Source: Hormiphora californensis (Eukaryota; Animalia; Ctenophora). Taken from it: DNA of 64,000 nucleotides. A program made the position numbers and the translations under genes. Within the stretch, counting starts at the first letter, position 1. The number at the start of each line of letters is the position of its first letter. The notes beneath the pieces are model-generated. The model was not told where the DNA came from and did not search any database. It saw only the letters and a list, made by a program, of their open reading frames with translations. The stretch lies in the NCBI GenBank assembly GCA_020137815.1, contig CM035356.1:6758001-6822000 (forward strand), written 5' to 3'. Positions 30,931-59,040 of this stretch are shown one piece after another.

Positions 30931-31855
<925 letters not shown>

Positions 31856-33607: not shown

Positions 33608-33629
33608 TATATTTAAGTTCTTTCAGGTA

Positions 33630-36600
33630 ATGCCAGAGGAAGGGGAATCCTGTAAAGATACTGGTTTGATCATCCAAAACAAATCCGCTGCAGATAATCA
33701 TGAGGCACCATCGGTCAGGTAAAACGTTAAAATTTTAACCCTTTAAGGACGAGAAGGATTGGCTCGATAGATTTTTCTAATTTTTCGTTTATAAGTAGAT
33801 ATTATTACCACAAACTACCTCGAAAAAGAAATTTGAAGTTTCGACATGTAGTTTTTGCTGGGCCCACTGTGTCATATATGACTCTATCGTCCGTAAGGGA
33901 ATTCTAGTAACAAATGTCATTTGTGCAAAAGTATGGGTCCAATAGTCAAATTTTATGCTTTGAGGCAGTCTATAGCTATAATTTGTACAATCTTGAACGG
34001 TTTTTACTAGAAAAATACCCCAAATTCTACATTTTGTATCATATATGACTCTATCGTCCCAATTGGTAAATTCTCCAAAAACATCCATAACTCGGGCTAG
34101 AAAAGGAGCTAAGAGTCAAATCAGGGCACTAAACTGTGTAGAATCATCGCATTAGTGGGGGTAGAGCACATAATTAGCTCGCTATCTTGCCCCCTAATTG
34201 AGATAATTGGATAATTAGCCAATTATCTGTCCAGCGCATGCTAATAAATAAAACTTTGCTTTGGGAAGGAGTTATGAGGCAAATGGGGGCACTAAAATGT
34301 GTAGAATCATCACATTAGTGGGGTTAGAGCACATATTTAGGTCTCTATCTGGACCCCTAATTGAGATAATTGGATAATTAGCTAATTAGTTGCCCTCCAG
34401 CGCTAAAAAATTAAATTTGGCGGAGTATACAAGACAAATGGGGGCACTAAAATGTGTAAAATCGTCGCCTTAGTGGGGGCAGAGCACATAGCTGAGTTTC
34501 TATTCCCGCTCCTAATTGAGATAATTGGATAATTAGCTAATTGACGGTTGCATAAAGCCCCCTTTTCACCATATACCGTGGTTTCTGGCTAATCCTGAGC
34601 TCTTTTGTTCAATCTAAGGATCTTTTGGCATCCCTTTACCCCATTTGTATCACCTTTGACTCGTTTTACTCAATAATATAGCACTCTAGATACAACCCTA
34701 GACGACGACTTCAGCTCTGTACAACCCCCTTGCTTCATCCTACTCCTAGCTAGACCTCTCATACACCATAAACGCCTTCTACAGATCATCTTTATTTCCG
34801 ATGGAGTTCACGAGAAGTTTCCTTAGTGGCAAATGAGATTGTGAGAGTGATGAGGAGAAATAATGTAGGGGGAATCTAAACTGTGTGTCCAATAATAAAA
34901 TGGGAAACTGTAGTACATTAGGGGTTGAACGTCTTGTAGGAGCAATAGGATATCCCAAAAAAAATCGGCCAGGAAGGTGTATGGATCTCGAAATTATGAG
35001 AGGTCTAGGATTAAGCAAGAGGGTTCTAAAGAGCTGAAGGCGGTGTCTAGGGTTGTATAGAGTGCTATATTAGTGTGTAAAACGAGTCAAAGGTGATACA
35101 AATGGGTAAAGGGATGCTAGAAGGGCCTTAGATTGAACAAAAGAGCTCAGGATTAGCCAGAAACCACGGTTTATGGTGAAAAGGGGCATTATGCAACCGC
35201 CAATTAGCTAATTATCCAATTATTTCAATTAGGAGCGGGAATAGAAACTCAGCTATGTGCTCTGCCTCTACTAAGGCGACGATTTTACACATTTTAGTAC
35301 CCCCATTTGTCTTGTATACTCCGCCAAATTTAATTTTTTAGCGCTGGAGGGCAACTAATTAGCTAATTATCCAATTATCTCAATTAGGGGTCCAGATAGA
35401 GACCTAAATATGTGCTCTAACCCCACTAATGTGATGATTCTACACATTTTAGTGCCCCCATTTGCCTCATAACTCCTTCCCAAAGCAAAGTTTCATTTAT
35501 TAGCATGCGCGGGACAGATAATTGGCTAATTATCCAATTATCTCAATTAGGGGGCAAGATAGCGAGCTAATTATGTGCTCTACCCCCACTAATGCGATGA
35601 TTCTACACAGTTTAGTGCCCTGATTTGACTCTTAGCTCCTTTTCTAGCCCGAGTTATGGATGTTTTTGGAGAATTTACCAATTGGGACGATAGAGTCATA
35701 TATGATACAAAATGTAGAATTTGGGGTATTTTTCTAGTAAAAACCGTTCAAGATTGTACAAATTATAGCTATAGACTGCCTCAAAGCATAAAATTTGACT
35801 ATTGGACCCATACTTTTGCACAAATGACATTTGTTACTAGAATTCCCTTACGGACGATAGAGTCATATATGATACAACGACTAAAACATTAATAACTCAT
35901 TCAATTTTCAATATTTTTTGATGCGGTTTTTTTGCATTCGATTTGTTATGTCAAGTAGTTTTATTCCTTCAAAGGATTATTTGTGCCCCTCAAAAACAAA
36001 AATTTGAGAGGGGTTTTTAAAAAAAGGCCTAAACTAGCCTCCCGAGAAGGGCCATAAAAAAATTTCTTCGATTTTCCGAGCAGATTTGGACGTGGTTTTG
36101 GGTTCAAAATCCCTAAAACTAGCTTGTGACAAAAAATTAGCCACCTAGACATCATGTAGCGCCTTCCAGACGGTCTAGAATGGACCGTGTCATATATGAC
36201 CTATCGCCCTCAAAGGTTTAATTACAGTCGGACCCCGATTTAGGGCCCCCCGATTTAGTGGCACCCCGATTTAGGGACAGGATTTTTTCCCCCGATATAG
36301 GAAATTAACCTTATTTGACCCCGATTTAGTGGACACCCCGATTTAGTGGACACGAGCCTTTCCCCCGAGGGTGTCCCTAAATCGGGGTCCGACTGTATTA
36401 AAATATTAAAATTAAATTAAAATTATAAAGCATGAAGCTTGGTCCGCGTTAGACGTCATGTTCTAACCCTCCTTTATATTTGTCGAGCAAGCTACCTGCT
36501 ACAAGTCCGCGTAGAATGTTCCTAATTCCACCTTCCTCATTCTATAATGTATGTCTGGCTGCAACTCGATCTGAGCGCATTGTTTTTCAAAATCAAAACG

Positions 36601-39600
36601 GGGTCCGGCACCGCCAGAAAATTCGTGGAATTCATACCACGTACCATGAATCACCAAGTGACACTGCATGTTCCCCCCACTGCAGAGTATAAGTTAGACG
36701 CGCTTAGAATTCATGTATCATATTCTCCTAGCGGCCTGTTATCTTTCACATGTTTTAGGTGGTCCATCACAGTTTTAAATTTATAAACACACGTCAAACA
36801 TGAACGGATTCATATTTCAGTTTCAATTTTAGTTTTAAATTAAATGTTATCGATCATTAAAGCTAGATCCCAGCAACCATAAGGTACCTGGTACTATATT
36901 CTTCCCCAAAGCAGCTTTATCCCAGCCTCTACGTGATCTCTAAGCTGCATAATATGACGTGCTAAAGTAAAGATCCTAGCCATGAACATATTTTCTCGAC
37001 GATGATCAGAGTTTAATGCGATGATCTCTCCCTTTCATTCTGCATCCCTGATATCCAGCTTGTGTGTGTATAAAGGGAGGGCGGTACTGCACAATTGATC
37101 GTTGTTTGTTTTGCACTTCGACGATGGAGCTAGATAAAATCGGATCATAATAAACCTCCTAGCTTAGAAACTGTAGGCTGAGCTCTTTCGTTCCACAAAT
37201 TTTTTTCATAATTTTCACTAATAATCCATGTAAGATGATATGAGCTATGCTTTTCAAATTGGCCGAGTTCAATTCACACTAAATTATGAGAATTATGCGA
37301 ATTTATGGTTGTGTGTGGCCTTTTTTGTAGATTACAGATTTTCGCAGATTACAGATTACTTTCTAACTTTATAATTCTACGTACGTGAGGCAGTGAGGGT
37401 GTGCTTGCATGAAATATGAATTACATTTTACAACCTAGATTATATATTGGATATTACATATAATACCGCTGTTGCGTCGGCTTGTTTACCTTAAGCTATC
37501 ACAATAGCACACACACAAATACCGAGAAGAGTTGAGAGAGAGTGTATGCTATTGCGTGTTTGCTTAGTCTTCATTGATTCTCCAGCAACAGCACCAGCGG
37601 AATATAAGGTAGGTTTTGATGGATAAATAGCTGTCTGCACTGCATCAGAGTGATGCACTACAGACAGTACAGATGTCATTACACAGTCACACTGTCATAG
37701 CCTCTGAGTTTCGTTGGCGATCGGAATTATTGCAGTTGGGCCAGTCTCTTACGGACATGGCCCAACTGCAACTACAGTTTTCTGAAGCGTCTGTCCGTAG
37801 AGATGTAAGAGTACGTCCCAGTGTTTCAAGATATATATTTTATGAACGAAAATGCTATTATTAATAGTATTTTCGTATTAAATATGCCACATTTTGTGTC
37901 ACAACCTTGTGTCATGTGAGTGCAATGGACCCTGCAGCCTGCCATATTTTCATTGATCTGTGTTTTGTTATATTTTCATTTTTTATTCGGATCTACTCAT
38001 CATGTCTAGTGTAGGGAAAACTGCACTTAACCGTCTCATCTATTATAACATGTAACTATAATAATGTTGCCATGCTACGCAGTCTGTCCTTTCCGCCTCC
38101 CTCTTCGGACTCGCCCGGTGTGAAAGCCGACAGACTGGGAACATGTCAAATATAATGTCACTCTAAAATAATAATATATTTGTGTGTTGCATCATTCTTT
38201 ACTAAACCTCCCCCAAATTGCAGCAGCAGATCAGAGACGATGCCTGCGGAAAAGAAATACGAGGCTCTCCAGAGTTGGGATGAGTCGGACAGGACGGTCA
38301 CACAGATGGGGTACTTCAACTGGAGACCACGGTTCCTTGAGGTATGTTTTATAGAGTCTATATATCTAATAGAGTCGTGATTCTTGTCATGTAATGCATA
38401 TCTAGCTGCTATACATAATACATCCGTGTTTGTATTTAGCTGCTATACATCCGTGTTTTTAGTATCTTCAGGGACTCTTTTGCGGGAGACGCCCATTCAA
38501 ATAATTTACCTTAATTATAATAACAACAAACAATTCTACAGGTATTTAATAAACCGGCGATATTTACAATTGTGTTTGCTGTTAGTAATCTGGCGATGAT
38601 AATGTCTTACAGTATTCTCAGTCTTATTATTCCAACCCTGGAGTCGGTCTTTAATCTTAACTCTAAACAAACAGGTATATTGATTAGATAATTGGTTAAT
38701 TAATTAGTCAATTGTTTGGCTAATAAATATTTAATTAAAAGTACATTTACTAAATAATCTGCATCACTTCATGGAATGGAGTTTGAAAGGTGAAATACTA
38801 TCATGTTACATAAATATTATTATCTTAAATTGACGTAAGAGATTGACGCAAACTAGCTGTTGTTATACAACAGCTTGAATTGTTCACACAACTGACTCAA
38901 ACAGCAGCAGATACAACATTACCACACGGTATATTAATAATACACGGTATCTCTTTATTTCAGGGTTCATTCTGATGGCTAATAATATCTCTTTGTTTCA
39001 GGGTTCATTCTGATGGCTAATGATATCAGTGGTATGGTAGCGGCTATATTCATGGCTAACTACTGTAGCGCCAGGAAAACTAAATGGATCGCTATCGGCA
39101 TGTTAATTGTAGCGGCATCAGCCGTTATTCCTGCCTCTACAACTCTGTTTGCTGAGGTATATCCAATTACTGATACTGTACAATGTAAATTGTACAAATA
39201 CATTATACAGTTACAGAAATAGGAAATATCCTACTTAAATAGACTAATCAAACGACCAAATTTTACAAATGTACACATTACTAATAAAAACCCTCTTTAT
39301 TGCAGTATCCCCAGCCACAAACAGGAAACACATCATCATCAACATACCAAATAGAACAGGACAAACAATATGGCATCTGTAACGAAACAATAACAAACTC
39401 AGAGGAGAAGCGTGAGGCGGGGGAGTACGCTGTAAGGAACCACAACTATTACTGGATGTTCATCCTGGGATCCCTCCTCCAGGGTATAGGAGCTACACCA
39501 CCCGGTATTGCTGGATCTACCTACATGGATGAGATCTTCCCACAGAAAATGTTCGGTATTGCTATCTCATTCCTGTATGTGGTGGCCTTCCTGGGGTTCC

Positions 39601-42600
39601 CTATCTCTATGATGCTGGGTGCTGTGTACCTTCAGTATTACGTCACTCTGGATCCCCCTCCTGGTCTGACGGTACAAGATAAGGAATGGGTGGGTGCTTG
39701 GTGGATGGGCATGTTTTATCCCAGCATCGCTGTACTCGTTCTATCTTTCTTCGTGGGGCTTTATCCAAGGCAAATGCCTGCTGCCAAGGTATTTAGTTTT
39801 AAATTGGGTTATATTTTAGATGGCTTTGGCTTTCACAGCTGTTTCCTTTATCCCTCTGCGGAATCCCTAGTCCTAGCTCAAATCCCCTTATCTCTCAGAA
39901 AGTCCTAGCTTAAATCCCCTTATCTCTTAGGAAGTCCTAGCTTAAATCCCCTTATCTCTTAGAAAGTCCTAGCTCAAATCCCCTTATCTCTTAGAAAGTC
40001 CTAGCTTAAATCACCTTATCTCTTAGAAAGTTCGAGCTTAAATCCCCTTATCTCTTAGAAAGTCCTAGCTTAAATCCCCTTATCTCTTAGAAAGTCCTAG
40101 CTTAAATCACCTTATCTCTTAGAAAGTTCGAGCTTAAATCCCCTTATCTCTTAGAAAGTCCTAGCTTAAATCCCCTTATCTCTTAGAAAGTCCTAGCTTA
40201 AATCTCCTTATCTCTTAGAAAGTCCTAACTTATATCCCCTTATCTCTAAGAAAATCCTAGCTTAAATCCCCCTATCTCTAAGAAAGTCCTAGCTTAAATC
40301 CCCTTATCTCTTAGAAAGTTCTAGCTTAAATCCCCTTATCTCTTAGAAAGTCCTAGCTTAAATCCCCTTATCTCTTAGAAAGTCCTAGCTTATATCCCCT
40401 TATCTCTTAGAAAGACCTAGTTTAAATCCCCTTATCTCTTAGAAAGTCCTCGCCTAAATCCCCTTATCTCTTAGAAAGTCCTAGCTTAAATCCCCTTATC
40501 TCTTAGAAAGTCGTAGCTTAAATCTCCTTATCTCTTAGAAAGTCCTAGCTTATATCCCCTTATCTCTAAGAAAATCCTAGCTTAAATCCCCCTATCTCTA
40601 AGAAAGTCCTAGCTTAAATCCCCTTATCTCTTAGAAAGTTCTAGCTTAAATCCCCTTATCTCTTAGAAAGTCCTAGCTTAAATCCCCTTATCTCTAAGAA
40701 AATCCTAGCTTAAATCCCCTTATCTCTAAGAAAGTCCTAGCTTAAATCCCCTTATCTCTTAGAAAATCCTAGCTTAAATCCTCTTATCTCTTAGAAATTC
40801 CTAGCTGAAATTCCCTTATCTCTAAGAAAGTCTTAGCTTAAATCCCCTAATCTCTAAGAAAATCCTAGTTTAAATCCCCTTATCCCTTAGAAAGTCCGGG
40901 CTTAAATCCCCTTATCTCTCAGAAAGTCCTAGCTTAAATCCCCTTATCTCTTAGAAAGTCCTAGCTTAAATCCCCTTATCTCTTAGAAAGTCTTAGCTTA
41001 AAGTGAGAGTGGACCGAATCAGAATTGGACAAGTTTGTTGTAGGTAGTAGAGATTAGCTTTCTGAGCATTTTGCGTTTTTGCCGCTCAAAATCGACCAAC
41101 CCATCACTGAGATATTTTTGTTATGTTGGGAGAATTACTGCTGGATCAATATTTATCAAACAGGATAGAAACAATCCTTGTGTTTTACTAACACATTCTT
41201 TAAAATTTTAATATGCTGGCTTGCATTGCCCTGCTTCTGTGCATGGACATGTCAACCTCACTGTTTATATTCAGAATGTGTTAGGAAAACACCACGATTG
41301 TTTCTATTCAATTTTATACATACTGATTAAACAGGAGTTCTCCCAACATAACAAAAATATCTCAGTGATGAGTGGGTCGATTTTGAGCGGCAAAAACGCA
41401 AAATGCTCAGAAAGCTAATTTCTACTACCTACAACAAACTTTTCCAATTCTGATTCGGTCCACTCTCACTTTAAATCCCCTTATCTCTAAGAAAATCCTA
41501 GCTTAAATCCCCTTATCTCTTAGAAATTCCTACCTTAAATTCCCTTATCTCTAAGAAAGTCTTAGCTTAAATCCCCTTATCTCTAAGAAAATCCTAGCTT
41601 AAATCCCCTTATCTCTAAGAAAGTCCTAGCTTAAATCCCCTTATCTCTTAGAAAATCCTAGCTTAAATCCTCTTATCTCTTAGAAATTCCTAGCTGAAAT
41701 TCCCTTATCTCTAAGAAAGTCTTAGCTTAAATCCCCTAATCTCTAAGAAAATCCTAGTTTAAATCCCCTTATCCCTTAGAAAGTCCGGGCTTAAATCCCC
41801 TTATCTCTCAGAAAGTCCTAGCTTAAATCCCCTTATCTCTTAGAAAGTCCTAGCTTAAATCCCCTTATCTCTTAGAAAGTCTTAGCTTAAATCCCCTTAT
41901 CTCTAAGAAAATCCTAGCTTAAATCCCCCTATCTCTAAGAAAGTCCTAGCTTAAATCCCCTTATCTCTTAGAAAGTTCTAGCTTAAATCCCCTTATCTCT
42001 AAGAAAGTCCTAGCTTAAATCCCCTTATCTCTTAGAAAGTCCTAGCTTATATCCCCTTATCTCTAAGAAAATCCTAGCTTAAATCCCCCTATCTCTAAGA
42101 AAGTCCTAGCTTAAATCCCCTTATCTCTAAGAAAATATTAGCTTAAATCCCCTTATCTCTAAGAAAGTCCTAGCTTAAATCCCCTTATCTCTAAGAAAGT
42201 CCTAGCTTAAATTACCTTATCTCTAAGAAAGTCCTAGCTTAAATCCCCTTATCTCTAAGAAAATCCTAGTTTAAATCCCCTTATCTCTTAGAAAGTTCTA
42301 GCTTGAACCCCATTATCTCTTAGAAAGTCCTAGCTTAAATCCCCTTATCTCTTACAAGGTTCTAGTTAAATCCCCTTATCTCTTAGAAAGTCCTAGCCTA
42401 AATTCCCTTATCTCTTAGAAAGTCCTAGCTTCAATTCCTTTATCTCTTAGAAAGTCCTCGCCTAAATCCCCATATCTCTAAGAAAGTCCTAGCTTAAATT
42501 CTCTTATCTCTCCTAGCATAAATCCCCTTATCTCTTAAAAAGTCCTAGCTTAAATCCCCTTATCTCTAAGAAAATCCTAGCTTAAATCCCCTTATCTCTA

Positions 42601-45600
42601 AGAAAGTCCTAGCTTAAATCCCCTTATCTTTTAGAAAGTCCTAGCTTAAATCCCCTTATCTCTAAGAAAGTTCGAGCTTAAATTCCCTTATCTCTTAGAA
42701 AGTCCTAGCTTAAATTCCCTTATCTCTAAGAAAGTCCTAGCTTAAATCCCCTTATCTCTAAGAAAGTCCTAGCTTAAATCCCCTTATCTCTAAGAAAGTC
42801 CTAGGTTAAATCCCCTTATCTCTTAGAAAGTCCTAGCTTAAATTCCCTTATCTCTTAGAAAGTCCTAGGCTAAATCCTCTTATCTCTTAGAAAGTCCTAG
42901 CTTAAATCCCCTTATCTCTTAGAAAGTCCTAGCCTAAATCCCCTTATCTCTTAGAAAGTCCTAGCTTAAATTCCATTATCTCTAAGAAAGTCCTAGCTTA
43001 AATCCCCTTATCTCTTAGAAAATCCTAGCTTAAATCCTCTTATCTCTTAGAAATTCCTAGCTGAAATTCCCTTATCTCTAAGAAAGTCTTAGCTTAAATC
43101 CCCTAATCTATAAGAAAATCCTAGTTTAAATCCCCTTATTCCTTAGAAAGTCCGGGCTTAAATCCCCTTATCTCTCAGAAAGTCCTAGCTTAAATCCCCT
43201 TATCTCTTAGAAAGTCCTAGCTTAAATCCCCTTATCTCTTAGAAAGTCTTAGCTTAAATCCCCTTATCTCTAAGAAAATCCTAGCTTAAATCCCCTTATC
43301 TCTTAGAAATTCCTACCTTAAATTCCCTTATCTCTAAGAAAGTCATAGCTTAAATCCCCTTATCTCTAAGAAAGTCCTAGTTTAAATCCCCTTATCCCTT
43401 AGAAAGTCCTAGCTTAAATTCACTTATCTCTTAGAAAGTCCTAGCTTAAATCCCCTTATCTCTCAGAAAGTCCGAGCTTAAATTCCCTTATCTCTAAGAA
43501 AGTCCTAGCCTAAATCCCCTTTTCTCTTAGAAAGTCCTCGCCTAAATCCCCTTATCTCTAAGAAAGTCCTAGCTTAAATCCCCTTATCTCTAAGAAAGTC
43601 CTAGCCTAAATCCCCTTATCTCTAAGAAAGTCCTAGCTTAAATCCCCTTATCTCTTAGAAAGTCCTAGCTTATATCCTCTTATCTCTAAGAAAATCCTAG
43701 CTTAAATCCCCCTATCTCTAAGAAAGTCCTAGCTTAAATCCCCTTATCTCTAAGAAAATCCTTATCTCTTCGAAAGTCTTAGCTTAAATCCCCTTATCTC
43801 TTAGAAAATCCTAGTTTAAATCCCCCTGTCTCTAAGAAATTCCTAGCTTAAACCCCCTTATCTCTTAGAAAGTCCTAGCTTAAATCCGCTTATCTCTTAG
43901 AAAGTCCTAGATTAAATCCCCTTATCTCTTAGAAAGTCCTAGCCTAAATCCCCTTATCTCTTAGAAAGTTCTAGCTTGAATCCCCTTATCTCTTAGAAAG
44001 TCCTAGCTTAAATCTCCTTATCTCTAAGAAAATCCTAGCTTAAATCCCCTTATCTCTTAGAAAGTCCTAGCCTAAATCCCCTTATTTCTTAGAAAGTCCT
44101 AGCTTAAATCCCCTTATCTCTTAAAAAGTCCTAGCTTAAATCCTCTCATCTCTTAGAAAGTCCCATCCTAAATCCCCTTATCTCTTAGAAAGTTCCAGCT
44201 TAAATCCCCTTATCTCTTAGAAAGTCCTAGCTTAAATCCCCTTATCTCTAAGAAAATCCTAGCTTAAATCCCCTTATCTCTAAGAAAATATTAGCTTAAA
44301 TCCCCTTATCTCTAAGAAAGTCCTAGCTTAAATCCCCTTATCTCTAAGAAAGTCCTAGCTTAAATTCCCTTATCTCTAAGAAAGTCCTAGCTTAAATCCC
44401 CTTATCTCTAAGAAAATCCTAGTTTAAATCCCCTTATCTCTTAAAAAGTTCTAGCTTGAACCCCATTATCTCTTAGAAAGTCCTAGCTTAAATCCCCTTA
44501 TCTCTTACAAGGTTCTAGCTTAAATCCCCTTATCTCTTAGAAAGTCCTAGCCTAAATCCCCTTATCTCTTAGAAAGTCCTAGCTTCAATTCCTTTATCTC
44601 TTAGAAAGTCCTCGCCTAAATCCCCATATCTCTAAGAAAGTCCTAGCTTAAATTCTCTTATCTCTCCTAGCATAAATCCCCTTATCTCTTAAAAAGTCCT
44701 AGCTTAAATCCCCTTATCTCTAAGAAAATCCTAGCTTAAATCCCCTTATCTCTAAGAAAGTCCTAGCTTAAATCCCCTTATCTTTTAGAAAGTCCTAGCT
44801 TAAATCCCCTTATCTCTAAGAAAGTTCGAGCTTAAATTCCCTTATCTCTTAGAAAGTCCTAGCTTAAATTCCCTTATCTCTAAGAAAGTCCTAGCTTAAA
44901 TCCCCTTATCTCTAAGAAAGTCCTAGCTTAAATCCCCTTATCTCTAAGAAAGTCCTAGGTTAAATCCCCTTATCTCTTAGAAAGTCCTAGCTTAAATTCC
45001 CTTATCTCTTAGAAAGTCCTAGGCTAAATCCTCTTATCTCTTAGAAAGTCCTAGCTTAAATCCCCTTATCTCTTAGAAAGTCCTAGCCTAAATCCCCTTA
45101 TCTCTTAGAAAGTCCTAGCTTAAATTCCATTATCTCTAAGAAAGTCCTAGCTTAAATCCCCTTATCTCTTAGAAAATCCTAGCTTAAATCCCCTTATCTT
45201 TTAGAAAGTCCTAGCTTAAATCCCCTTATCTCTAAGAAAGTTCGAGCTTAAATCCCCTTATCTCTTAGAAAGTCCTAGCTTAAATTCCCTTATCTCTAAG
45301 AAAGTCCTAGCTTAAATCCCCTTATCTCTAAGAAAGTCCTAGCTTAAATCCCCTTATCTCTAAGAAAGTCCTAGCTTAAATCCCCTTATCTCTTAGAAAG
45401 TCCTAGCTTAAATTCCCTTATCTCTTAGAAAGTCCTAGGCTAAATCCTCTTATCTCTTAGAAAGTCCTAGCTTAAATCCCCTTATCTCTTATAAAGTCCT
45501 AGCCTTAATCCCCTTATCTCTTAGAAAGTCCTAGCTTAAATCTCCTTATCTCTAAGAAAATCCTAGCTTAAATCCCCTTATCTCTTAGAAAGTCCTAGCC

Positions 45601-48600
45601 TAAATCCCCTTATTTCTTAGAAAGTCCTAGCTTAAATCCCCTTATCTCTTAAAAAGTCCTAGCTTAAATCCTCTCATCTCTTAGAAAGTCCCATCCTAAA
45701 TCCCCTTATCTCTTAGAAAGTTCCAGCTTAAATCCCCTTATCTCTTAGAAAGTCCTAGCTTAAATCCCCTTATCTCTAAGAAAGTCCTAGGTTAAATCCC
45801 CTTATCTCTTAGAAAGTCCTAGCTTAAATTCCCTTATCTCTTAGAAAGTCCTAGGCTAAATCCTCTTATCTCTTAGAAAGTCCTAGCTTAAATCCCCTTA
45901 TCTCTTAGAAAGTCCTAGCCTAAATCCCCTTATCTCTTAGAAAGTCCTAGCTTAAATTCCATTATCTCTAAGAAAGTCCTAGCTTAAATCCCCTTATCTC
46001 TTAGAAAATCCTAGCTTAAATCCCCTTATCTTTTAGAAAGTCCTAGCTTAAATCCCCTTATCTCTAAGAAAGTTCGAGCTTAAATCCCCTTATCTCTTAG
46101 AAAGTCCTAGCTTAAATTCCCTTATCTCTAAGAAAGTCCTAGCTTAAATCCCCTTATCTCTAAGAAAGTCCTAGCTTAAATCCCTTTATCTCTAAGAAAG
46201 TCCTAGCTTAAATCCCCTTATCTCTTAGAAAGTCCTAGCTTAAATTCCCTTATCTCTTAGAAAGTCCTAGGCTAAATCCTCTTATCTCTTAGAAAGTCCT
46301 AGCTTAAATCCCCTTATCTCTTATAAAGTCCTAGCCTTAATCCCCTTATCTCTTAGAAAGTCCTAGCTTAAATCTCCTTATCTCTAAGAAAATCCTAGCT
46401 TAAATCCCCTTATCTCTTAGAAAGTCCTAGCCTAAATCCCCTTATTTCTTAGAAAGTCCTAGCTTAAATCCCCTTATCTCTTAAAAAGTCCTAGCTTAAA
46501 TCCTCTCATCTCTTAGAAAGTCCCATCCTAAATCCCCTTATCTCTTAGAAAGTTCCAGCTTAAATCCCCTTATCTCTTAGAAAGTCCTAGCTTAAATCCC
46601 CTTATCTCTAAGAAAATCCTAGCTTAAATCCCCTTATCTCTAAGAAAATATTAGCTTAAATCCCCTTATCTCTAAGAAAGTCCTAGCTTAAATCCCCTTA
46701 TCTCTAAGAAAGTCCTAGCTTAAATTCCCTTATCTCTAAGAAAGTCCTAGCTTAAATCCCCTTATCTCTAAGAAAATCCTAGTTTAAATCCCCTTATCTC
46801 TTAGAAAGTTCTAGCTTGAACCCCATTATCTCTTAGAAAGTTCTAGCTTAAATCCCCTTATCTCTTACAAGGTTATAGCTTAAATCCCCTTATCTCTTAG
46901 AAAGTCCTAGCCTAAATCCCCTTATCTCTTAGAAAGTCCTAGCTTCAATTCCTTTATCTCTTAGAAAGTCCTCGCCTAAATCCCCATATCTCTAAGAAAG
47001 TCCTAGCTTAAATTCTCTTATCTCTCCTAGCATAAATCCCCTTATCTCTTAAAAAGTCCTAGCTTAAATCCCCTTATCTCTAAGAAAATCCTAGCTTAAA
47101 TCCCCTTATCTCTAAGAAAGTCCTAGCTTAAATCCCCTTATCTCTTAGAAAGTCCTAGCTTAAATTCCCTTATCTCTAAGAAAGTCCTAGCTTAAGGGTA
47201 CACCTCGGCAAAATTTTTGTCGAGTGCCCGCTTAGCTCTCCATATGGGGTTGTAGGGCATACCAAGCCGACCTCAAATATGCAATTTTAGCCCTTAACTC
47301 GAATTCATATTTTTGCTACAGCCCCTCAAAGTTTGACCCTAAAAACCGGTTTTTAAGGTCCCTAAATTTTATTTTTAGGGCTAGAAAGCTGAAAATTTAG
47401 GGATTCATAGAGGATACCAAGGTGTATAGCTCAAACAGAAATTTTTTGAAATGGAGCTCAATTTTTTGTCTGAGACTATTTTACTTTTTTTGACTTTGAG
47501 GCCATATTTGGACATGTTCCTATGGACCGTTAAGGCTAAAAATTGGATATTTGGTGCTCCTAACAATTGTCAAAGTAGCCACAAATTTTCAGGAGGTCCG
47601 AATTTGAAATGTGGCCTACAGGTTTCTTTTTGTAAAGCACATATTTTAGGAAAACTTAAAATGGCTATATCTCAAAAACGGTAGGTCCTAGCGATCTAAT
47701 TTCGTGCTAAATCGATTCAGCGGGTCCGATTTTGGGGGGGTCGTCTCTTAGACATTTTGCTCTAAGTCTAACCGTTTTTTCAGAAATCGTATTTTAAGGT
47801 TTGTACATGTTTAGCAGAAATGCTTCTAGCTAGAGCTAATCTTACCTATTTCTGCTAAACATGTACAAACCTTAAAATACGATTTCTGAAAAAACGGTTA
47901 GACTTAGAGCAAAATGTCTAAGAGACGACCCCCCCAAAATCGGACCCGCTGAATCGATTTAGCACGAAATTAGATCGCTAGGACCTACCGTTTTTGAGAT
48001 ATAGCCATTTTAAGTTTTCCTAAAATATGTGCTTTACAAAAAGAAACCTGTAGGCCACATTTCAAATTCGGACCTCCTGAAAATTTGTGGCTACTTTGAC
48101 AATTGTTAGGAGCACCAAATATCCAATTTTTAGCCTTAACGGTCCATAGGAACATGTCCAAATATGGCCTCAAAGTCAAAAAAAGTAAAATAGTCTCAGA
48201 CAAAAAATTGAGCTCCATTTCAAAAAATTTCTGTTTGAGCTATACACCTTGGTATCCTCTATGAATCCCTAAATTTTCAGCTTTCTAGCCCTAAAAATAA
48301 AATTTAGGGACCTTAAAAACCGGTTTTTAGGGTCAAACTTTGAGGGGCTGTAGCAAAAATATGAATTCGAGTTAAGGGCTAAAATTGCATATTTGAGGTC
48401 GGCTTGGTATGCCCTACAACCCCATATGGAGAGCTAAGCGGGCACTCGACAAAAATTTTGCCGAGGTGTACCCTTAAATCCCCTTATCTCTAAGAAAGTC
48501 CTAGCTTAAATCCCCTTATCTCTAAGAAAGTCCTAGGTTAAATCCCCTTATCTCTTAGAAAGTCCTAGCTTAAATTCCCTTATCTCTTAGAAAGTCCTAG

Positions 48601-51600
48601 GCTAAATCCTCTTATCTCTTAGAAAGTCCTAGCTTAAATCCCCTTATCTCTTAGAAAGTCCTAGCCTAAATCCCCTTATCTCTTAGAAAGTCCTAGCTTA
48701 AATTCCATTATCTCTAAGAAAGTCCTAGCTTAAATCCCCTTATCTCTTAGAAAATCCTAGCTTAAATCCCCTTATCTTTTAGAAAGTCCTAGCTTAAATC
48801 CCCTTATCTCTAAGAAAGTTCGAGCTTAAATCCCCTTATCTCTTAGAAAGTCCTAGCTTAAATTCCCTTATCTCTAAGAAAGTCCTAGCTTAAATCCCCT
48901 TATCTCTAAGAAAGTCCTAGCTTAAATCCCCTTATCTCTAAGAAAGTCCTAGCTTAAGGGTACACCTGGCTTTTTTCATCATCGAGTGCCCAACCAAATG
49001 ACTTCACCAGGGTTTAGGCTATACAAAATAGACCTCAAATATGCAATTTTAGCCCTAAAGTCGAATTCATATTTTTGCTACAGCCTATTTTCAAAGTGGC
49101 GTTTTTTCAATTTTTGTTGAAATTTTTAACCTCAGGACCACTTTTTTTGAGATAGAAACATTAAATTCTTGGAATTTGAAGAGAATATAAAGGTGAATAA
49201 GCCCAAAGAAGGATTTTTGAAATGGAGCTTATTTCTGGCCATGAGAACGGTTTACTTTTTTGCTTCTTTGACACGCTGGCTGAGAATGTTCCCATGCTTC
49301 ATTAGAGATGAAAATCTGGAAATAGTTGCTCAAAACGATTATCTATGTGGCCCAAAAATTTTGGAACTTTCCCGCCAAAGATGTGGTGTACAGAGCTTTT
49401 TTTGTGAAACCTGTCTTTTTGAAAAAGAGGGAAATTCCCTGTATCTCAAAAACGGATGATCGTAGAGACCTGGGACCGAGCTTAATCGATTCAGAAGGTT
49501 CGATTTTGGGGGGGTCTTCTGAGAGACATTTTGCTCCTACTCCAACCGTTTTTGCTGTAATTGCGAAAAAGGTATCAGCAAGTAAGGGGGAAATCAGCCC
49601 GAAGCAGGCTACTGGAATAGAGTTGTTTCCCCTTTTCATAGAATTGGTTTTTTTGCAATTACAGCAAAATCGGTTGGAGTAGGAGCAAAATGTCTCTCAG
49701 AAGACCCCCCCAAAATCGAACCTTCTGAATCGATTAAGCTCGGTCCCAGGTCTCTACGATCATCCGTTTTTGAGATACAGGGAATTTCCCTCTTTTTCAA
49801 AAAGACAGGTTTCACAAAAAAAGCTCTGTACACCACATCTTTGGCGGGAAAGTTCCAAAATTTTTGGGCCACATAGATAATCGTTTTGAGCAACTATTTC
49901 CAGATTTTCATCTCTAATGAAGCATGGGAACATTCTCAGCCAGCGTGTCAAAGAAGCAAAAAAGTAAACCGTTCTCATGGCCAGAAATAAGCTCCATTTC
50001 AAAAATCCTTCTTTGGGCTTATTCACCTTTATATTCTCTTCAAATTCCAAGAATTTAATGTTTCTATCTCAAAAAAAGTGGTCCTGAGGTTAAAAATTTC
50101 AACAAAAATTGAAAAAACGCCACTTTGAAAATAGGCTGTAGCAAAAATATGAATTCGACTTTAGGGCTAAAATTGCATATTTGAGGTCCATTTTGTATGG
50201 CCTAAACCCTGGTGAAGTCATTTGGTTGGGCACTCGATGATGAAAAACGCCAGGTGTACCCTTAAATCCCCTTATCTCTTAGAAAGTCCTAGCTTAAATT
50301 CCCTTATCTCTTAGAAAGTCCTAGGCTAAATCCTCTTATCTCTTAGAAAGTCCTAGCTTAAATCCCCTTATCTCTTATAAAGTCCTAGCCTTAATCCCCT
50401 TATCTCTTAGAAAGTCCTAGCTTAAATTCCATTATCTCTAAGAAAGTCCTAGCTTAAATCCCCTTATCTCTAAGAAAATCCTTATCTCTTCGAAAGTCTT
50501 AGCTTAAATCCCCTTATCTTTTAGAAAGTCCTAGCTTAAATCTCCTTATCTCTAAGAAAATCCTAGTTTAAATCCCCTTATCTCTTAGAAAGTCCTAGCC
50601 TAAATCCCCTTATTTCTTAGAAAGTCCTAGCTTAAATCCCCTTATCTCTTAAAAAGTCCTAGCTTAAATCCTCTCATCTCTTAGAAAGTCCCAGCCTAAA
50701 TCCCCTTATCTCTTAGAAAGTTCCAGCTTAAATCTCCTTATCTCTTAGAAAGTCCTAGCTTAAATCCCCTTATCTCTAAGAAAATCCTAGCTTAAATCCC
50801 CTTATCTCTAAGAAAATATTAGCTTAAATCCCCTTATCTCTAAGAAAGTCCTAGCTTAAATCCCCTTATCTCTAAGAAAGTCCTAGCTTAAATTCCCTTA
50901 TCTCTAAGAAAGTCCTAGCTTAAATTCCCTTATCTCTAAGAAAGTCCTAGCTTAAATCTTCTTATCTCTAAGAAAATCCTAGTTTAAATCCCCTTATCTC
51001 TTAGAAAGTTCTAGCTTGAACCCCATTATCTCTTAGAAAGTCCTAGCTTAAATCCCCTTATCTCTTACAAGGTTCTAGCTTAAATCCCCTTATCTCTTAG
51101 AAAGTCCTAGCCTAAATCCCCTTATCTCTTAGAAAGTCCTAGCTTCAATTCCTTTATCTCTTAGAAAGTCCTCGCCTAAATCCCCTTATCTCTAAGAAAG
51201 TCCTAGCTTAAATTCTCTTATCTCTCCTAGCATAAATCCCCTTATCTCTTAAAAAGTCCTAGCTTAAATCCCCTTATCTCTAAGAAAGTCCTAGCTGAAA
51301 TTCCCTTATTTCTAAGAAAGTCCTAGCTTAAATTCCCTTATCTCTAAGAAAATCCTAGCTTAAATCCCCTTATCTCTAAGAAAGTCCTAGCTTAAATCCC
51401 CTTATCTCTAAGAAAGTCCTAGCTGAAATTCCCTTATTTCTAAGAAAGTCCTAGCTTAAATTCCCTTATCTCTAAGAAAGTCCTAGCCTAAATCCCCTTA
51501 TCTCTTAGAAAGTCCTAGCTTAAATCCCCTTATCTCTAAGAAAGTCCTAGCTTAAATCCCCTTATCTCTTAAAAAGTCCTAGCTTAAATCCTCTCATCTC

Positions 51601-54600
51601 TTAGAAAGTCCTAGCCTAAATCCCCTTATCTCTTAGAAAGTTCCAGCTTAAATCCCCTTATCTCTTAGAAAGTCCTAGCTTCAATTCCTTTATCTCTTAG
51701 AAAGTCCTCGCCTAAATCCGCTTATCTCTAAGAAAGTCCTAGCTTAAATTCTCTTATCTCTCCTAGCATAACTTCCCTTATCTCTAAGAAAGTCTTAGCT
51801 TAAATCCCCTTATCTCTAAGAAAGTCCTAGTTTAAATCCCCTTATCCCTTAGAAAGTCCTAGCTTAAATGCACTTATCTCTTAGAAAGTCCTAGCTTAAA
51901 TCCCCTTATCTCTCAGAAAGTCCGAGCTTAAATTCCCTTATCTCTAAGAAAGTCCTAGCCTAAATCCCCTTATCTCTTAGAAAGTCCTCGCCTAAATCCC
52001 CTTATCTCTAAGAAAGTCCTAGCTTAAATCCCCTTATCTCTAAGAAAGTCCTAGCCTAAATCCCCTTATCTCTAAGAAAGTCCTAGCTTAAATCCCCTAA
52101 TCTCTTAGAAAGTCCTAGCTCAAATCCCCTTATCTCTTAGAAAGTCCTCGCTTAAATCTCCTTATCTCTTAGAAAGTCCTAGCAGACAAGATCAAGAAAG
52201 GGATCACATCAGCGAACGAGAAGCGACAGGAACTGGGAAGATCACTGAAGGAAATTACACAGGATATGATCCCTGCTTATTTCAGAATGTTAAAAAATAA
52301 GGCCCTTACTGCCCTTGTTGTTGGAGATATGTTTCTCTTTCTTCAGATTGGAAGTTACAGCTTCTACCCTAAAATATATTCCATGGTTTTCAGGTAAGTA
52401 AGGGTACAATAGTGATATGATACAGTCGGACCCCGATTTACCGGGATGGTCGGGGGAATTTTACCCGCCCGGTAAATCGGGGCTCGTTATATCGGGGCCG
52501 ACTGTAGTTCTAAATCTATGATATGGCTATAGATTGATTCTTACAGTTCACACACATATTATGACGGTATGTTAATTTCAGATTGAATCCACGAGAAGTC
52601 GGCAGTATCCTAGGCTTGGCTAATTTGGTTGGATTTGGTGTTGGTTTAGTAGCGGGTGGCGTGTTAACGAAGGCTAAAAACTGGAAGCCCAGAACTCTCC
52701 AACTGATATACTGTATTCTCACAACGGTCGCTCTTCCCTTTACATTCGGCCTGTTTCTGTATTGCCCCACTGATACCTATGCTGGGGTGGATGTACACTA
52801 TTTTAATAGTGGTTCTAATTCAACTCAACTCGGGTAGGTGATATCTTTAGGGCGGCTGCAGTAGAGTATTGCTACCTCTATGCTCCTCCGGACACAGCAC
52901 TCACAACAAATGTCAAACAAACAGTCCTGGAATGCCCAATATTTTCTTGTTGAGTAACGGCCTTTACTCAACCACTATATTCTCAGGGTTCCCACACTAT
53001 TAGAGGAGTGCAACAGTGACTGTGCCTGTACTACAGCGTTCTACCAACCCGTCTGTGATGGTGGTATTACCTACTTTTCACCCTGCCACGCTGGCTGCTC
53101 AGACGTAGAGTTGGACGACCCCACCGCATTGAACAGCACGGTAAGAGAGAAATGATTAATGAATGTGTGATATGAATTGAATGTGTGATGATTGTTAGAA
53201 TATATTGCTTGTTTGACTCGGGTGCTATTCTTTTTCATCCAATTTTGATGTTGTGAGACATAGGGCTAACAGTAAAACTAGAAATTTAAGGGTACGCTAA
53301 CCAAAAATTTTTTTCGAGTGCAGGGAAATCTCTCACCGTAGGGTTGTAGGCCATGCCAAGGAGACCTCAAATATGCAATTTGAGCTCTCAAGTCGAATTC
53401 ATATTTTTGCTACAGCTGCTTGAAAAATGAACTGTAAATACGTTTTTGGCATCTCAAAAATTTTTTTTAAAGATAGGAGCATGAAAATTTGGGGATTTGA
53501 AGAGGACATGAAGGTGAATAACCACAAAATTTTTTTTTGCAATCCGAGCTGATTTCCGGTCCTGAGATGGATTTCTTTTTTTCCACTTTAACGCCCTATT
53601 TGGCAAAGTTCCGAAAACATGTGAAAGCTGTAAATTGGTGAAAAGTTGCGTCTAACGATTATCTAAGTGGCCATAAATTTTGGGCGTGTCCTTATTTGAG
53701 ATAAGCTGTACAGAGTTTTTTTTGTGAAAGCCGTCATTTCAGAAATAAATAAATTCCCTGTATCTCAAAAACGGCTGATCGTAGAGACCTGAGATTATGC
53801 TTAAACGATTCAGAAGGTCCGATTTTGGGGGGGTCTTCTGAGAGACATTTTGCTCCTACTTCAACCGTTTTTGCTGTAATTGCGAAAAACAAATTCTATG
53901 AAAAGGGCAAAAGCTAAACTCCAATATCCTGTAATTAGGGAATTTTAGCTAAGAAAGGACCGAAACTATGGAAAAATGTGTAACAAGCTAATTCTTCACT
54001 ATTTGGTCCATATGGGTCCCTATAATCGCCAAAAACAAAATCACAAAAAATCCACGATGGCGAAGATGGGTTTTTGTTTTTCGCAATTACAGCAAAAACG
54101 GTTGAAGTAGGAGCAAAATATCTCTCAGAAGACCCCCCCAAAATCGGACCTTCTGAATCGTTTAAGCATAATCTCAGGTCTCTACGATCAGCCGTTTTTG
54201 AGATACAGGGAATTTATTTATTTCTGAAATGACGGCTTTCACAAAAAAAACTCTGTACAGCTTATCTCAAATAAGGACACGCCCAAAATTTATGGCCACT
54301 TAGATAATCGTTAGACGCAACTTTTCACCAATTTACAGCTTTCACATGTTTTCGGAATTTTGCCAAATAGGGCGTTAAAGTGTAAAAAAAGAAATCCATC
54401 TCAGGACCGGAAATCAGCTCGGATTGCAAAAAAATTTTTGGTTAGCGTACCCTTAAGCGACCTCTGAAGCTCGGAACTGGGACGATAAGATAGATATAGA
54501 TTGTTATATTGTGTTTGCTATTATTATTGCGATATGTTCATCATACATATTATACAACTTGAACTATACAGTTTGCTGTATAACCAATGCTACAAACCGT

Positions 54601-55733
54601 GCTGCAGCTGCGGCTAATCGGCTATCATTTGCACTACATGCTACTAGCATTGCTAGCTGTATCAGTTAAGCAACCCTCACAGTGAGCACCGCTCAAGTAA
54701 AACCCCTGCGCTGTATTAAAATTGCGCTGGAACACTACACGATATAGATTGAAAACAATATACAACTCGGCTAGAGGGCAGTCTATTGTGAGCTACAAGT
54801 GCTGATGCGGATGACATATTGCTAAATGTGCTACGTGTGCTACAATTGTATCCCCTATATGCTACATGTGCTACAAGTACAATATTATGACATTATGTTT
54901 CCTAATTCTTGAAGCCCTTTCTCCCCTTTTGAAGCCCCCCTCCCTTCTTGAAGCCCAATTCCCCCTATTCTTGAAGCCCTTCTTTTTGCACACTCTGCAT
55001 GACCCAGGTTGCTCGTTATCTGGGGTGTTCCTGTACACAATCAACCACGGCTCGACCCGGAACCTGCGAGGGAAAATGCGACAACGTCCTGGTGCAGAAC
55101 CTGGTGGTGAATGTCATCAACACAGCAATCAACTTTGCTGGATTCCCTGCCAGCGCTATTGTCTATCAGCGGGTTGTGTCCGAAGTGGATAGAACATCAG
55201 CCCAGGGACTGAGACAATTTGCAACACGGCTGTTTGGAACGCTTCCCTCTCCTCTAATATTTGGGTTGATCTTGGATAGGATGTGTAGTGTGTGGAGGGA
55301 GAGTGATGATGGAACCGTGGGAAATTGTTGGACCTACGATATTGATAGGTATGTGTTGGCAATGTTAGTATTAAACTGCGTGGAAAATGGCGGTTCGGCC
55401 AACCGGATTTTCAGTCGCGCACTAATACGAAGAGTCCGTAAATCTCCGTAAAGCCTAAAAGAGTCCACCACCATTTTATCTTTTACTACATATTATACTT
55501 TCAGGCTGATGATGTATTTTATTCTGGCCCAAGTTGCCATGAAAGTTTGCTCGGCATTGTGTCTTTGGGTTGCTTGGTGGTTTTTCCCTACAATACCCGA
55601 GCGAATCGATACAAGTGAAGAATCTGAGGATGGAGGAGAGATGAAACCGATAGAAAACGGTGACAATGATGGGTCAGATGATAACAAATCTGTTCAAATA
55701 ACGACTGAAAAATCAGGAACAGAGGAAATCTAA
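33630..55733 (+). CDS. SLCO: Organic anion transporting polypeptide (OATP/SLCO), isoform using proximal C-terminal cassette A
   Basis: Exons 33630-33718 (putative first coding; otherwise ATG 38240), 38224-38341, 38542-38674, 39002-39156, 39306-39788, 52173-52393, 52582-52833, 52987-53140, 55008-55348, 55505-55733, all phase-compatible. Motifs: [14 protein letters not shown]; STYMDE; OATP signature [11 protein letters not shown]; Kazal-like [21 protein letters not shown]; [17 protein letters not shown]...GNCW.YD. Confidence 0.9.
33739..36217. mobile_element. Non-autonomous piggyBac-like element (TTAA flanks) with an ~850-bp internal inverted repeat
   Basis: TTAA|CCCTTTAAGGACGAGA ... TATCGCCCTCAAAGGT|TTAA. 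Arms ~33872-34720 and ~35030-35872 give the mirror ORFs 33789-34088 and 35656-35892. Each arm holds three ~170-bp subrepeats. Confidence 0.75.
36225..36395. mobile_element. Tc1/mariner-type MITE with internal ccccgatttag repeats
   Basis: TA|cagtcggaccccgatttaggg ... ccctaaatcggggtccgactg|TA. Confidence 0.85.
41002..41470. mobile_element. TTAA-specific palindromic MITE with AG...CT termini (Kolobok-like), inserted in the satellite
   Basis: TTAA|AGTGAGAGTGGACCGAATCAGAATTGG ... CCAATTCTGATTCGGTCCACTCTCACT|TTAA, with ~200-bp imperfect arms. Confidence 0.85.
47196..48473. mobile_element. TTAA-specific fold-back element with GG...CC termini (Kolobok-like), inserted in the satellite
   Basis: TTAA|GGGTACACCTCGG ... 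CCGAGGTGTACCC|TTAA. Arms ~625 bp, spacer ~26 bp. The mirror 77-aa ORFs are identical. Confidence 0.9.
48958..50261. mobile_element. TTAA-specific fold-back element (same family, different subfamily), inserted in the satellite
   Basis: TTAA|GGGTACACCTGGC ... GCCAGGTGTACCC|TTAA. Arms ~610 bp, spacer ~80 bp. Confidence 0.9.
52423..52504. mobile_element. Tc1/mariner-type mini-MITE
   Basis: TA|cagtcggaccccgatttaccggg ... atcggggccgactg|TA. Confidence 0.8.
53290..54452. mobile_element. TTAA-specific fold-back element, third subfamily, with a deletion in the right arm
   Basis: TTAA|GGGTACGCTAACC ... GGTTAGCGTACCC|TTAA. It shares internal blocks (gacctcaaatatgcaattt, cgaattcatatttttgctacagc, tatctcaaaaacgg) with the 47196 and 48958 elements. 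Confidence 0.85.
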
Positions 55734-56011: not shown

Positions 56012-57041
56012 GTTGCCAGGTATCTTGACTGTAAGTGTACCAAATCCGGCACAGCAAGTCCCGGGGAATGTGGTGGGAAATGTACTGCACGGCTTATCGG
56101 GGCAATGATCATCTCTCAGATCAATACGGGTATCCGGTTCGCTGGTTTCCCCGCCCATGCCATCATTTACCAGCGAGTGGTGGCTGAGTCAGACAGAACC
56201 ATTGCGCAAGGTGAAGTTTTATGTAGTCATGGTTATGCATGGTGTTTCCAATCTCTAAATTCACATTTACTCCGTGTGATATCCATACTTTGATATATTC
56301 CTAATACTTACACGACTTGAACTAACGTGTTTCTCTTCGTTATTATTATCTTTGCCACCTGTACAGGCTTGAGATCTTTTGCCACGAAAGCCCTGGGCAC
56401 GATGCCAAGCCCGTTGTTGTACGGGGCAGTGTTGGACAGTATGTGCACTGTGTGGAGGACGACAGAGGATGGAAAGGTGGGAAACTGCTGGCTTTACGAT
56501 ATACCCAAGTGAGTACTTTAACTTGTAGAATTCAACATTTTGTATTCTGTATTTATGCCCAACTTGAAATTTTCCAACCAACCAACTAAAGTATCTTTTT
56601 GGCCCCAATTCTTGTATTTAAAACAATTCACTGCACACTTTAGGTTGATAGCTGCATTCGTTTTTATCCGGTTTGGTTTGATGTCTGCCAGCGCAATTTG
56701 CTCCTGGCTAGCCTGGTTCTGGATGTCTGACGAGGGACCTCCGAAGAAGGTAATTGGTAAATATTAGGGCATTTTGCCTTGTTCGATCCTCTATCCCCTT
56801 GGGTTTGAACAAAACAAAGGGCGTTCTGATACATGAAAATCAACCGGCAACCCAACTGCAACCCTAACACAGCCCTAACATTGTGAGTTCTGTACACCCT
56901 GTCCCTAACATTTACCGCAAACCTCCCAAAAAGGCAGTAACTAATGAGGTTGAGGAGATTGAGGTTGAGGAAGAAAAGAAGGATGACATGGCATTCTCAG
57001 ATGAGGATGGAGATGAGGATAGGAAAATGCTTGGGAATTGA
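56012..57041 (+). CDS. SLCO: Second (distal) OATP C-terminal exon cassette B: end of Kazal loop, TM10-12 and acidic tail
   Basis: Exons 56012-56210, 56367-56508, 56644-56749 and 56934-57041 are open and in phase: VARYLDCKC..GFPAHAIIYQRVVAESDRTIAQG-LRSFATKALGTMPSPLLYGAVLD..GNCWLYD. It has the same phase-0 start as exon 55008 and no upstream exons of its own. Confidence 0.8.
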
Positions 57042-58009: not shown

Positions 58010-58635
58010 AATCTGTGTGAGTGTGTGTTTGTATGTTTGTCGTCTTTTTGCAGCACTTGTATTCGGTAAATTTTTTAACTGGAGCACACGAATGGTCCTT
58101 GTGAGGTTTCAGCTTCTCAGCTGCTGCTCTGTTGCTAGTTTTCCCCTCTTTCTATATATCTCACCTTAGCTAACTAAGCTTAGTTTTCCCTCCTTCTCTG
58201 TCACCTTAGTTTTCCCTCTTCTCTCACCTGCATTTACTAACTCTCTCACCTTAGTTTGCATTTACTCGCCCTATTTAGTATTTGCCTTCAATTCAGTAGG
58301 GTACAGCTGCCTATTTTATGGATTAAATTTTGGTATTTTCTTGTTTCAATTTTGTCTCAGTCATCAATGCTGCCAGCGCCAGTGCCGTGGTTTCACTAGT
58401 TTTAATTTCCAAACCAGATTTACAATTACAAGTGTGTGCCAATTGATGATCATATCTCGAAATGTAGTCAATTAAAAACAGCGCTGTGATATCACTAATC
58501 ATGCTAACTCTTCCAATATGACGCAATTAACCATGGAGCTGCTCCAATTAACTGGAGCCATGCTGCTTTTTAATTTCTTTGTGCCCTTTTTATTTCTAAT
58601 TTCATTTTCCCATTCTTTTAATATCTTCTTCGTAT

Positions 58636-59040
58636 CTCTGTCTCTGTCTCTGTCTCTGTCTCTGTCTCTGTCTCTGTCTCTGTCTCTGTCTCTGTCTCTG
58701 TCTCTGTCTCTGTCTCTGTCTCTGTCTCTGTCTCTGTCTCTGTCTCTGTCTCTGTCTCTGTCTCTGTCTCTGTCTCTGTCTCTGTCTCTGTCTCTGTCTC
58801 TGTCTCTGTCTCTGTCTCTGTCTCTGTCTCTGTCTCTGTCTCTGTCTCTGTCTCTGTCTCTGTCTCTGTCTCTGTCTCTGTCTCTGTCTCTGTCTCTGTC
58901 TCTGTCTCTGTCTCTGTCTCTGTCTCTGTCTCTGTCTCTGTCTCTGTCTCTGTCTCTGTCTCTGTCTCTGTCTCTGTCTCTGTCTCTGTCTCTGTCTCTG
59001 TCTCTGTCTCTGTCTCTGTCTCTGTCTCTGTCTCTGTCTC
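58636..59040. repeat. (GTCTCT)n microsatellite
   Basis: ~400-bp hexanucleotide array. The RD/SL repeat ORFs are artefactual. Confidence 0.97.

Follow-up and report, generated by a model that had tools for sequence, protein, structure and literature searches.

The stretch analysed here is a window of 64,000 nucleotides from the ctenophore Hormiphora californensis (GenBank assembly GCA_020137815.1, contig CM035356.1, positions 6,758,001 to 6,822,000 of the forward strand; coordinates below count from the first base of the window). It contains a gene of the OATP transporter family whose fourth intron is filled largely by tandem copies of that intron's own 3' splice site, and the question taken up here is how one acceptor among so many copies is chosen. 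Exons on both sides of the array match the Pfam OATP family (PF03137), with the Kazal insert present and the reading frame uninterrupted. The coding exons of the gene are:

38240..38341, forward strand: OATP coding exon 1 (ATG, MPAEKKY...), matching the P. bachei model P0036
38542..38674, forward strand: OATP coding exon 2
39002..39156, forward strand: OATP coding exon 3
39306..39788, forward strand: OATP coding exon 4, ending ...PRQMPAAK, with a phase-0 donor GTATTT (Pfam OATP E=6.8e-30; P0036)
52173..52393, forward strand: OATP coding exon 5 (KVLADKIKK...), purine-rich (0.70) just past the repeat unit, 100% identical to P0036 residues 365-438
52582..52833, forward strand: OATP coding exon 6
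52987..53140, forward strand: OATP coding exon 7 (Kazal domain)
55008..55733, forward strand: 3' exon set A (55008-55348 and 55505-55733), which completes a 690-aa protein
56012..57041, forward strand: duplicated 3' exon set B (56012-56210, 56367-56508, 56644-56749 and probably 56934-57041), open and in phase

Joined as 38240...39788|52173...55733 with the A-type 3' end, the model reads through 690 residues without a stop, in agreement with the original prediction, made from the letters of the DNA, that the upstream exon ends in phase 0 at 39788 and that the rest of the gene is intact. Over exon 4 the nearest homologues are ctenophore proteins (Bolinopsis XP_063684145.1, 65%; Mnemiopsis, 54%). 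The gene is near-identical to the P. bachei model P0036, which places the animal in Pleurobrachia or very close to it. Exon lengths in the gene range from 102 to 483 nt and the remaining five introns among exons 1-7 measure 149-327 nt; intron 4 (39789-52172) is 12,384 nt long, in phase 0, with the donor GCCAAG|GTATTT at 39788 and the acceptor TCTTAG|AAAGTC at 52173.

The 3' end of the gene, encoding the end of the Kazal loop and the last helices, is duplicated, and exon sets A and B are both open and in phase with exon 7. Set B carries an intron absent from set A, the P. bachei model P0036 fuses both sets, and the two are possibly alternative last exons. Full-length OATP homologues (P0002-P0004, P0012-P0018), called on ENA contigs that reach 164 kb, suggest intronless paralogues in other ctenophores.

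Intron 4 and the start of exon 5 are made up of these parts:

39789..39868, forward strand: 5' portion of intron 4, 80 nt outside the repeat, from the sequence
39869..52183, forward strand: minisatellite with a 32-bp unit in 291 copies, from segmentation, consensus and pattern matches
52152..52183, forward strand: last unit, the authentic acceptor (TAG 52170-52172) with the first 11 coding bases, identified by its being the sole open frame and by the homologue junction

The array divides into 291 head-to-tail units, 280 of them of 32 bp, five of 24 bp, two of 18 bp, one of 31 bp and three that precede an insertion. Each 32-bp unit joins 21 nt of intron end, closing in AG, to 11 nt of exon head, with the consensus TTAAATCCCCTTATCTCTTAG|AAAGTCCTAGC (the bar marks the splice boundary), and the array is thus a boundary-spanning repeat built from the gene's own acceptor and exon head. 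This is what had been proposed at the outset, namely about 290 copies of an intron's own 3' splice site in a 12-kb intron, each a pyrimidine tract, an AG and 11 nt of the next exon. Relative to the consensus, the 283 full-length units have 1.8 differences on average, and they fall into 82 distinct types. A 22-nt unit pattern has 283 matches in the real sequence and none in 100 of 100 shuffles; at up to five mismatches there are 286 unit matches in the window, every one within the array, with no copy on the minus strand or outside the array, and a scan of metagenome contigs with the unit pattern gave no matches. In the non-repeat part, 39799-39820 weakly resembles the unit (16/22 identity, shuffle P=0.024). 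Block duplications are nested within the array, where runs of 10-29 units recur at several offsets, the longest being a run of 29 units that recurs 68 units later.

A quarter of the array's span, 3,063 of its 12,315 bp, consists of three palindromic insertions:

41002..41470, no strand assigned: palindromic non-autonomous element 1, 469 bp, AG...CT ends, TTAA duplication, Kolobok-like by the end rule of PMC9587614
47196..48473, no strand assigned: palindromic element 2, 1,278 bp, 630-nt perfect arms, GG...CC ends, TTAA duplication, Kolobok-like
48958..50261, no strand assigned: palindromic element 3, 1,304 bp, 617-nt arms 99% alike, GG...CC ends, TTAA duplication, Kolobok-like

All three have a TTAA duplication, RR...YY ends and terminal inverted repeats. 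Kolobok transposons are recognised by TTAA duplication and 5'-RR...YY-3' ends (PMC9587614), and by their likeness to the non-autonomous forms in these two features the insertions appear to be Kolobok-like non-autonomous elements, an assignment made from the ends, and passengers in the array. Since the consensus and most units carry TTAA, the array is a ready target for elements with this preference. Element 1 opens with a donor-like GTGAGA at 41003 directly after a TAG decoy, and 40987-41002 on the forward strand could define a 16-nt stop-bearing micro-exon. Further long palindromic elements lie at 53288-54457 and about 33730-36220, the one at 53288 having a TTAA duplication and GGGTAC ends that resemble insertions 2 and 3.

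How good the copies are as splice sites was judged from the word at -3 to -1, which over the 291 units is TAG in 146, CAG in 6 and AAG in 115, with no AG in 24; among the 290 internal units this leaves 151 with YAG, 115 with AAG and 24 without AG. The 30 modelled acceptors in the window are CAG in 25 cases, TAG in 4 and AAG in 1, and as these are nearly all YAG, about half of the internal copies (151/290) are good decoys. The commonest variant in the array is the acceptor-weakening change T>A at -3, present in 113 of the 283 full-length units. The first unit is a CAG copy only 110 nt from the donor, and 18 of the 20 units nearest the donor are YAG, as are 10 of the 20 that precede the true acceptor, so that neither end has been purged. 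A stop follows in all 266 internal units that bear an AG, after four codons in 247 of them and after 10-63 codons in 19; the last unit alone is open, as the original prediction held. Its claim that splicing to earlier copies yields KVLA and a stop needs qualifying, as all 266 do lead to a stop and only 167 to exactly KVLA-stop. Likewise, the hundreds of near-identical acceptors to be bypassed would indeed be mostly bypassed, as argued below, with the reservation that only 151 of the 290 keep YAG.

Several observations show that the boundary on which the array sits is old. In tblastn alignments, homologue residues 328|329 map to 39788|52173. Six residues separate PAAK from a [VI]xxGIT motif in all of the first eight homologues, with V-L invariant, and 23 full-length homologues, which are not independent and include P0036, have P[RT]QMP.AK followed by six residues of the type KVLxxK. 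The 11 exonic bases of the unit encode K-V-L, which is conserved in the homologues. In seven of eight short homologous proteins, PAAK or PAAR is followed by V (a GT codon) and then by unrelated sequence; these are genomic read-throughs that enter an intron at this donor position. Two further read-through frames from other ctenophore contigs (P0051 and P0052) have Q (a CAR codon) directly before KVL or IVL, preceded by 22 and 63 non-repeating residues upstream of the acceptor; over these 66-190 nt, seen as translation only, the relatives lack the array. By these signs the intron is old, and its position and acceptor are common to other ctenophore OATP genes. As the read-throughs lose the homology at this donor and regain it at this acceptor, the array grew on a boundary that was already there, and the intron does not owe its origin to it. 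Intron birth by tandem duplication (the Rogers model, as given in PMC3087553) was considered and rejected, the intron being present at the same position in relatives. A scan of 41 related loci found none with nucleotide similarity to the window, and the homologue and representative protein searches returned no protein of this species that derives from a transcript and crosses the junction.

Assembled contigs were aligned to the two flanks of the array, sets X5, X6, X7 and X8 to 38150-39945 and sets X1, X6, X7 and X8 to 52110-53280; X5 and X6 are one second, divergent sample. One X6 contig (record 11) extends from 52140 across the last unit and on into exon 5 in that sample, and unit variants of the array also occur there. 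Shared variants together with a unit beside the same exon indicate that the tandem copies predate the split of these alleles. Every coding difference listed for the second sample is synonymous (22 of 22 downstream of the array, 13 of 13 upstream, and all ten listed in exon 5), against a 23% share of synonymous sites. Purifying selection on exons 5-7 with the unit present implies that full-length protein is very likely made and that the decoys are mostly bypassed. Among the RNA contigs, X7 contributes a single 249-nt piece inside exon 4 and leaves the repeat unit without cover, a contig gap that was not counted as evidence, and X8 contributes only a diverged homologue (84-90% alike) with a loose end at 52393 that resembles the next exon. 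Estimating copy number from contig depth was tried and rejected, as the two runs of the second sample disagree several-fold (X5, 397,128 over about 290; X6, 88,285 over about 360-630).

A second boundary duplication is found in intron 2 of the same gene:

38948..39027, forward strand: two-copy 38-bp duplication (16 nt of intron and 22 nt of exon) over the exon 3 acceptor

Here the upstream acceptor at 38964 would lead to a frameshift and a stop, and the acceptor at 39002 is in frame. A second-sample contig covers 38948-39027 with no 38-bp gap among its listed gaps.

Tandem repeats that span an intron-exon boundary have been described in lancelets as "mirages" (PMC3087553, PMC3902484), and the array in intron 4 is a mirage minisatellite of this known kind; what is new is its size (291 copies) and the phylum. 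A framing of it as without precedent does not stand in view of these reports. The mirage of lancelet BflGb6 consists of an acceptor and exon head in 3 and 6 units, many but not all with splice signals (PMC3087553). Lancelet mirages carry splice signals yet leave splicing undisturbed by reverse transcription PCR (RT-PCR; PMC3087553, PMC3902484), and the PGBD5, Adh and troponin C mirages behave likewise (PMC3902484). The present array shares with them a unit made of the 3' end of an intron together with an exon's 5' part (as in BflGb6), a splice signal kept in many but not all copies (here 151 YAG, 115 AAG and 24 without AG), concerted block-wise turnover, and a gene that stays functional. It differs in having 291 copies against 3 and 6 in BflGb6 and 2-7 in PGBD5, in its host, a ctenophore as opposed to a cephalochordate, and in the three transposon-like palindromes that it holds; normal splicing was seen there by RT-PCR, whereas here we infer it. 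Larger published copy numbers may exist. In the openly accessible literature searched, we found no boundary minisatellite from ctenophores or Pleurobrachia.

Two human loci are also instructive. The 37-bp variable number tandem repeat (VNTR) in IVS7 of F7 contains silent 5' pseudo-sites (PMC1557585); like the array it spans a boundary, its spare sites are identical, functional and unused, and the copy adjacent to the exon wins, although there the donor side is repeated and here the acceptor side. The mechanism shown for F7 is scanning from 5' to 3' to the first site (PMC1557585), which applied here would pick the wrong, first copy. In ABCA7 a long intronic VNTR likewise lies beside a splice site and is reported to affect splicing (PMC5954066), an effect of which nothing has been seen for the present array; it serves as the model for the idea, weighed below, that array length tunes expression.

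Taking these observations together, we consider it likely that the spliceosome uses mainly the last copy, and that the array is probably a tolerated mirage minisatellite, or VNTR, rather than a switch. It probably began with a 32-bp slippage duplication across the old intron-exon boundary, which unequal exchange would have amplified while the array collected three TTAA-targeting elements. Selection on the downstream exons suggests that donor 39788 is joined mostly to 52173, giving enough full-length mRNA. The acceptor would be chosen from the exon side, by exon definition or by an enhancer, and stray use of an internal copy would lead to an early stop and nonsense-mediated decay, hiding the cost and allowing the array to drift. 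Both purine-rich splicing enhancers and nonsense-mediated decay are well established. The last copy alone precedes a purine-rich exon body and sits nearest the downstream donor, the others preceding another pyrimidine tract; the purine share 12-41 nt past the acceptor is 0.70 at the true site, the highest of 11 exons, compared with 0.37 at the decoys. With the first YAG copy 110 nt from the donor and the decoys unpurged, a first-come choice from the donor would kill the gene. Among the options named in the original prediction, recognition from the exon side therefore seems the best fitting. A longer AG-free zone before the true acceptor, created by CTCG in place of CTAG in the penultimate unit, was considered as the discriminator and is probably not it, as A appears to stand at 52149 in the second sample.

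A number of points weigh against this interpretation. The decoys at 52141 and 52109 are TAG and would give exons of 253 and 285 nt, within the range of 102-483 nt found in the gene, so that exon definition alone is insufficient and a position-sensitive signal is needed. The putative enhancer for that role is an argument from composition, and at the two-copy duplication in intron 2 the purine contrast is weaker (0.50 compared with 0.33). Selection against decoys could lie behind the frequency of T>A at -3, although a single old change spread by block duplication could explain that frequency equally well. No RNA contig crosses the junction among those of X7 and X8 on both flanks, and we infer the use of the acceptor at 52173. 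The second sample shows tandem units and not the length of the array; the synonymous counts cover the listed differences, with 40 and 20 further entries outside them and those seen only in X7 or X8 left out; and P0036 is a gene prediction, not a transcript.

Some alternatives concern what the array is. It is very unlikely that the unit is a dispersed satellite that matches the acceptor incidentally, or that the real acceptor lies outside the unit at the AAG|ATC of 52191. The survey of copies was confined to the window and the metagenome contigs, and there is an in-frame AAG six codons downstream, but no copy lies beyond the array in the 64 kb, the exonic bases of the unit encode residues kept in homologues (V-L invariant and the six-residue spacing, 8/8), and the acceptor is at the same place in other ctenophore genes; an AAG|ATC acceptor would furthermore remove conserved residues in a window where 29 of 30 modelled acceptors are YAG. 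The conserved K-V-L and the mapping of the junction to 52173 thus bear out the original view that the unit is the gene's own acceptor and the match not incidental. We think it similarly improbable that the assembly has the length or inner order of the array wrong, by collapse or expansion, and that 291 is not the true allele size. The count comes from the assembly alone, near-identical blocks of 26-29 units are difficult to assemble and the window's left half has stretches that appear rich in errors, but the 82 distinct units and three different insertions provide unique landmarks within the array, and many variant unit contigs are present in both samples. Least probable of all is that the spare acceptors are sites of spliced-leader trans-splicing, with some transcripts cut into half-transporter or non-coding pieces. 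The array does offer many acceptors far from a donor, and in a related ctenophore 56% of Iso-Seq reads carried a spliced leader (PMC8527503); against this, an upstream donor exists, and a leader placed on an internal unit would be followed by nothing but repeats and stops.

Other alternatives concern how the array is spliced. Stepwise use and looping-out had been offered in the original prediction. Recursive splicing from unit to unit and an RNA fold that loops out the array both now look highly doubtful. The AG of each unit is followed 3 nt later by GT, and there are a few donor-like sites within the insertions, yet the array GTs are unlike donors: 257 of 258 have a pyrimidine at +3, as against 1 of 28 real donors in the window (27 of 28 have a purine), and all eight AGGT sites have T at +3. 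With its three long hairpins folded, the intron would be about 3 kb shorter; these hairpins are, however, self-contained, and pairing between elements could hide only about 15 units. No inverted repeat of at least 20 nt joins the intron flanks, and the donor-acceptor duplex (-42.7 kcal/mol) is weaker than most shuffles (-50.7 +/- 5.6), 186 of 200 being at least as stable. Nor is the true tract more open than those of the decoys (0.39 compared with 0.47-0.56). The strongest competitor, still an unlikely one, is leaky or regulated decoy use, in which transcripts spliced to internal copies are destroyed by nonsense-mediated decay; the roughly 150 acceptors would drain a length-dependent share of transcripts, and copy number and the TAG-to-AAG mix would together form a heritable dial on the level of the transporter. 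If this were true, the spread of the AAG variant would record selection on the dial, and length-tuned decay would make the repeat an unusually large dial for expression. All 151 internal YAG copies lead to stops, the commonest variant weakens the acceptor, two insertions put a donor-like GT just behind a decoy, making poison micro-exons possible (for example at 40987-41002), and the VNTR of ABCA7 affects splicing (PMC5954066). On the other side, YAG shows no gradient or purge toward either end, the stops are built into the unit (as TAA and TAG words) and require no selection, lancelet mirages are silent by RT-PCR (PMC3087553), and no RNA contig of X7 or X8 on either flank shows decoy use.

Across the window, boundary copies occur at three of the 30 acceptors and at none of the 28 donors, compared with 19 of 400 random YAG sites, which is no significant excess. 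In a cadherin-domain gene on the minus strand, 12475-12685 holds about seven copies of a 30-bp unit made of a pyrimidine tract, CAG and 9 nt like an exon head; the repeat preserves the reading frame and has no stop (TVTPIISIAQ), 10 residues would be gained per acceptor, and it is either a third mirage or a coding repeat. An intron of a cadherin gene contains, nested antisense, an intronless 340-aa membrane-protein ORF (13895-14917) with no Pfam match, whose stop codon is spanned by a 69-bp repeat of 3.4 copies at 14849-15080 on the forward strand. The stretches at about 2700-3800, 9200-10700 and 17300-18600 are homopolymer-rich and resemble low-quality single-pass sequence, and such a stretch appears to cut a cadherin exon near 18600. 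Perfect long microsatellites are found at 30932-31855, (TGTC)231, and 58635-59041, (TCTCTG)68. A short inverted element family, CAGTCGGACCCCGAT..., is present at 52420-52500, 33530-33610, 36228-36395 and 61215-61315; at the 52420 copy very many contigs pile up, from both samples and from RNA run X7, and a second-sample contig has other letters across the intron that holds this copy.

The most likely reading, a tolerated mirage spliced mainly at its last copy, extends the lancelet class to ctenophores at a far larger size than in the published cases compared above. In a region whose other introns are 149-327 nt long, the splicing machinery apparently ignores 151 YAG rivals in favour of a copy 12.4 kb from the donor. 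The locus is a clean natural test of acceptor choice, one that argues against a first-come choice from the donor and for recognition from the exon side in an early-branching animal.

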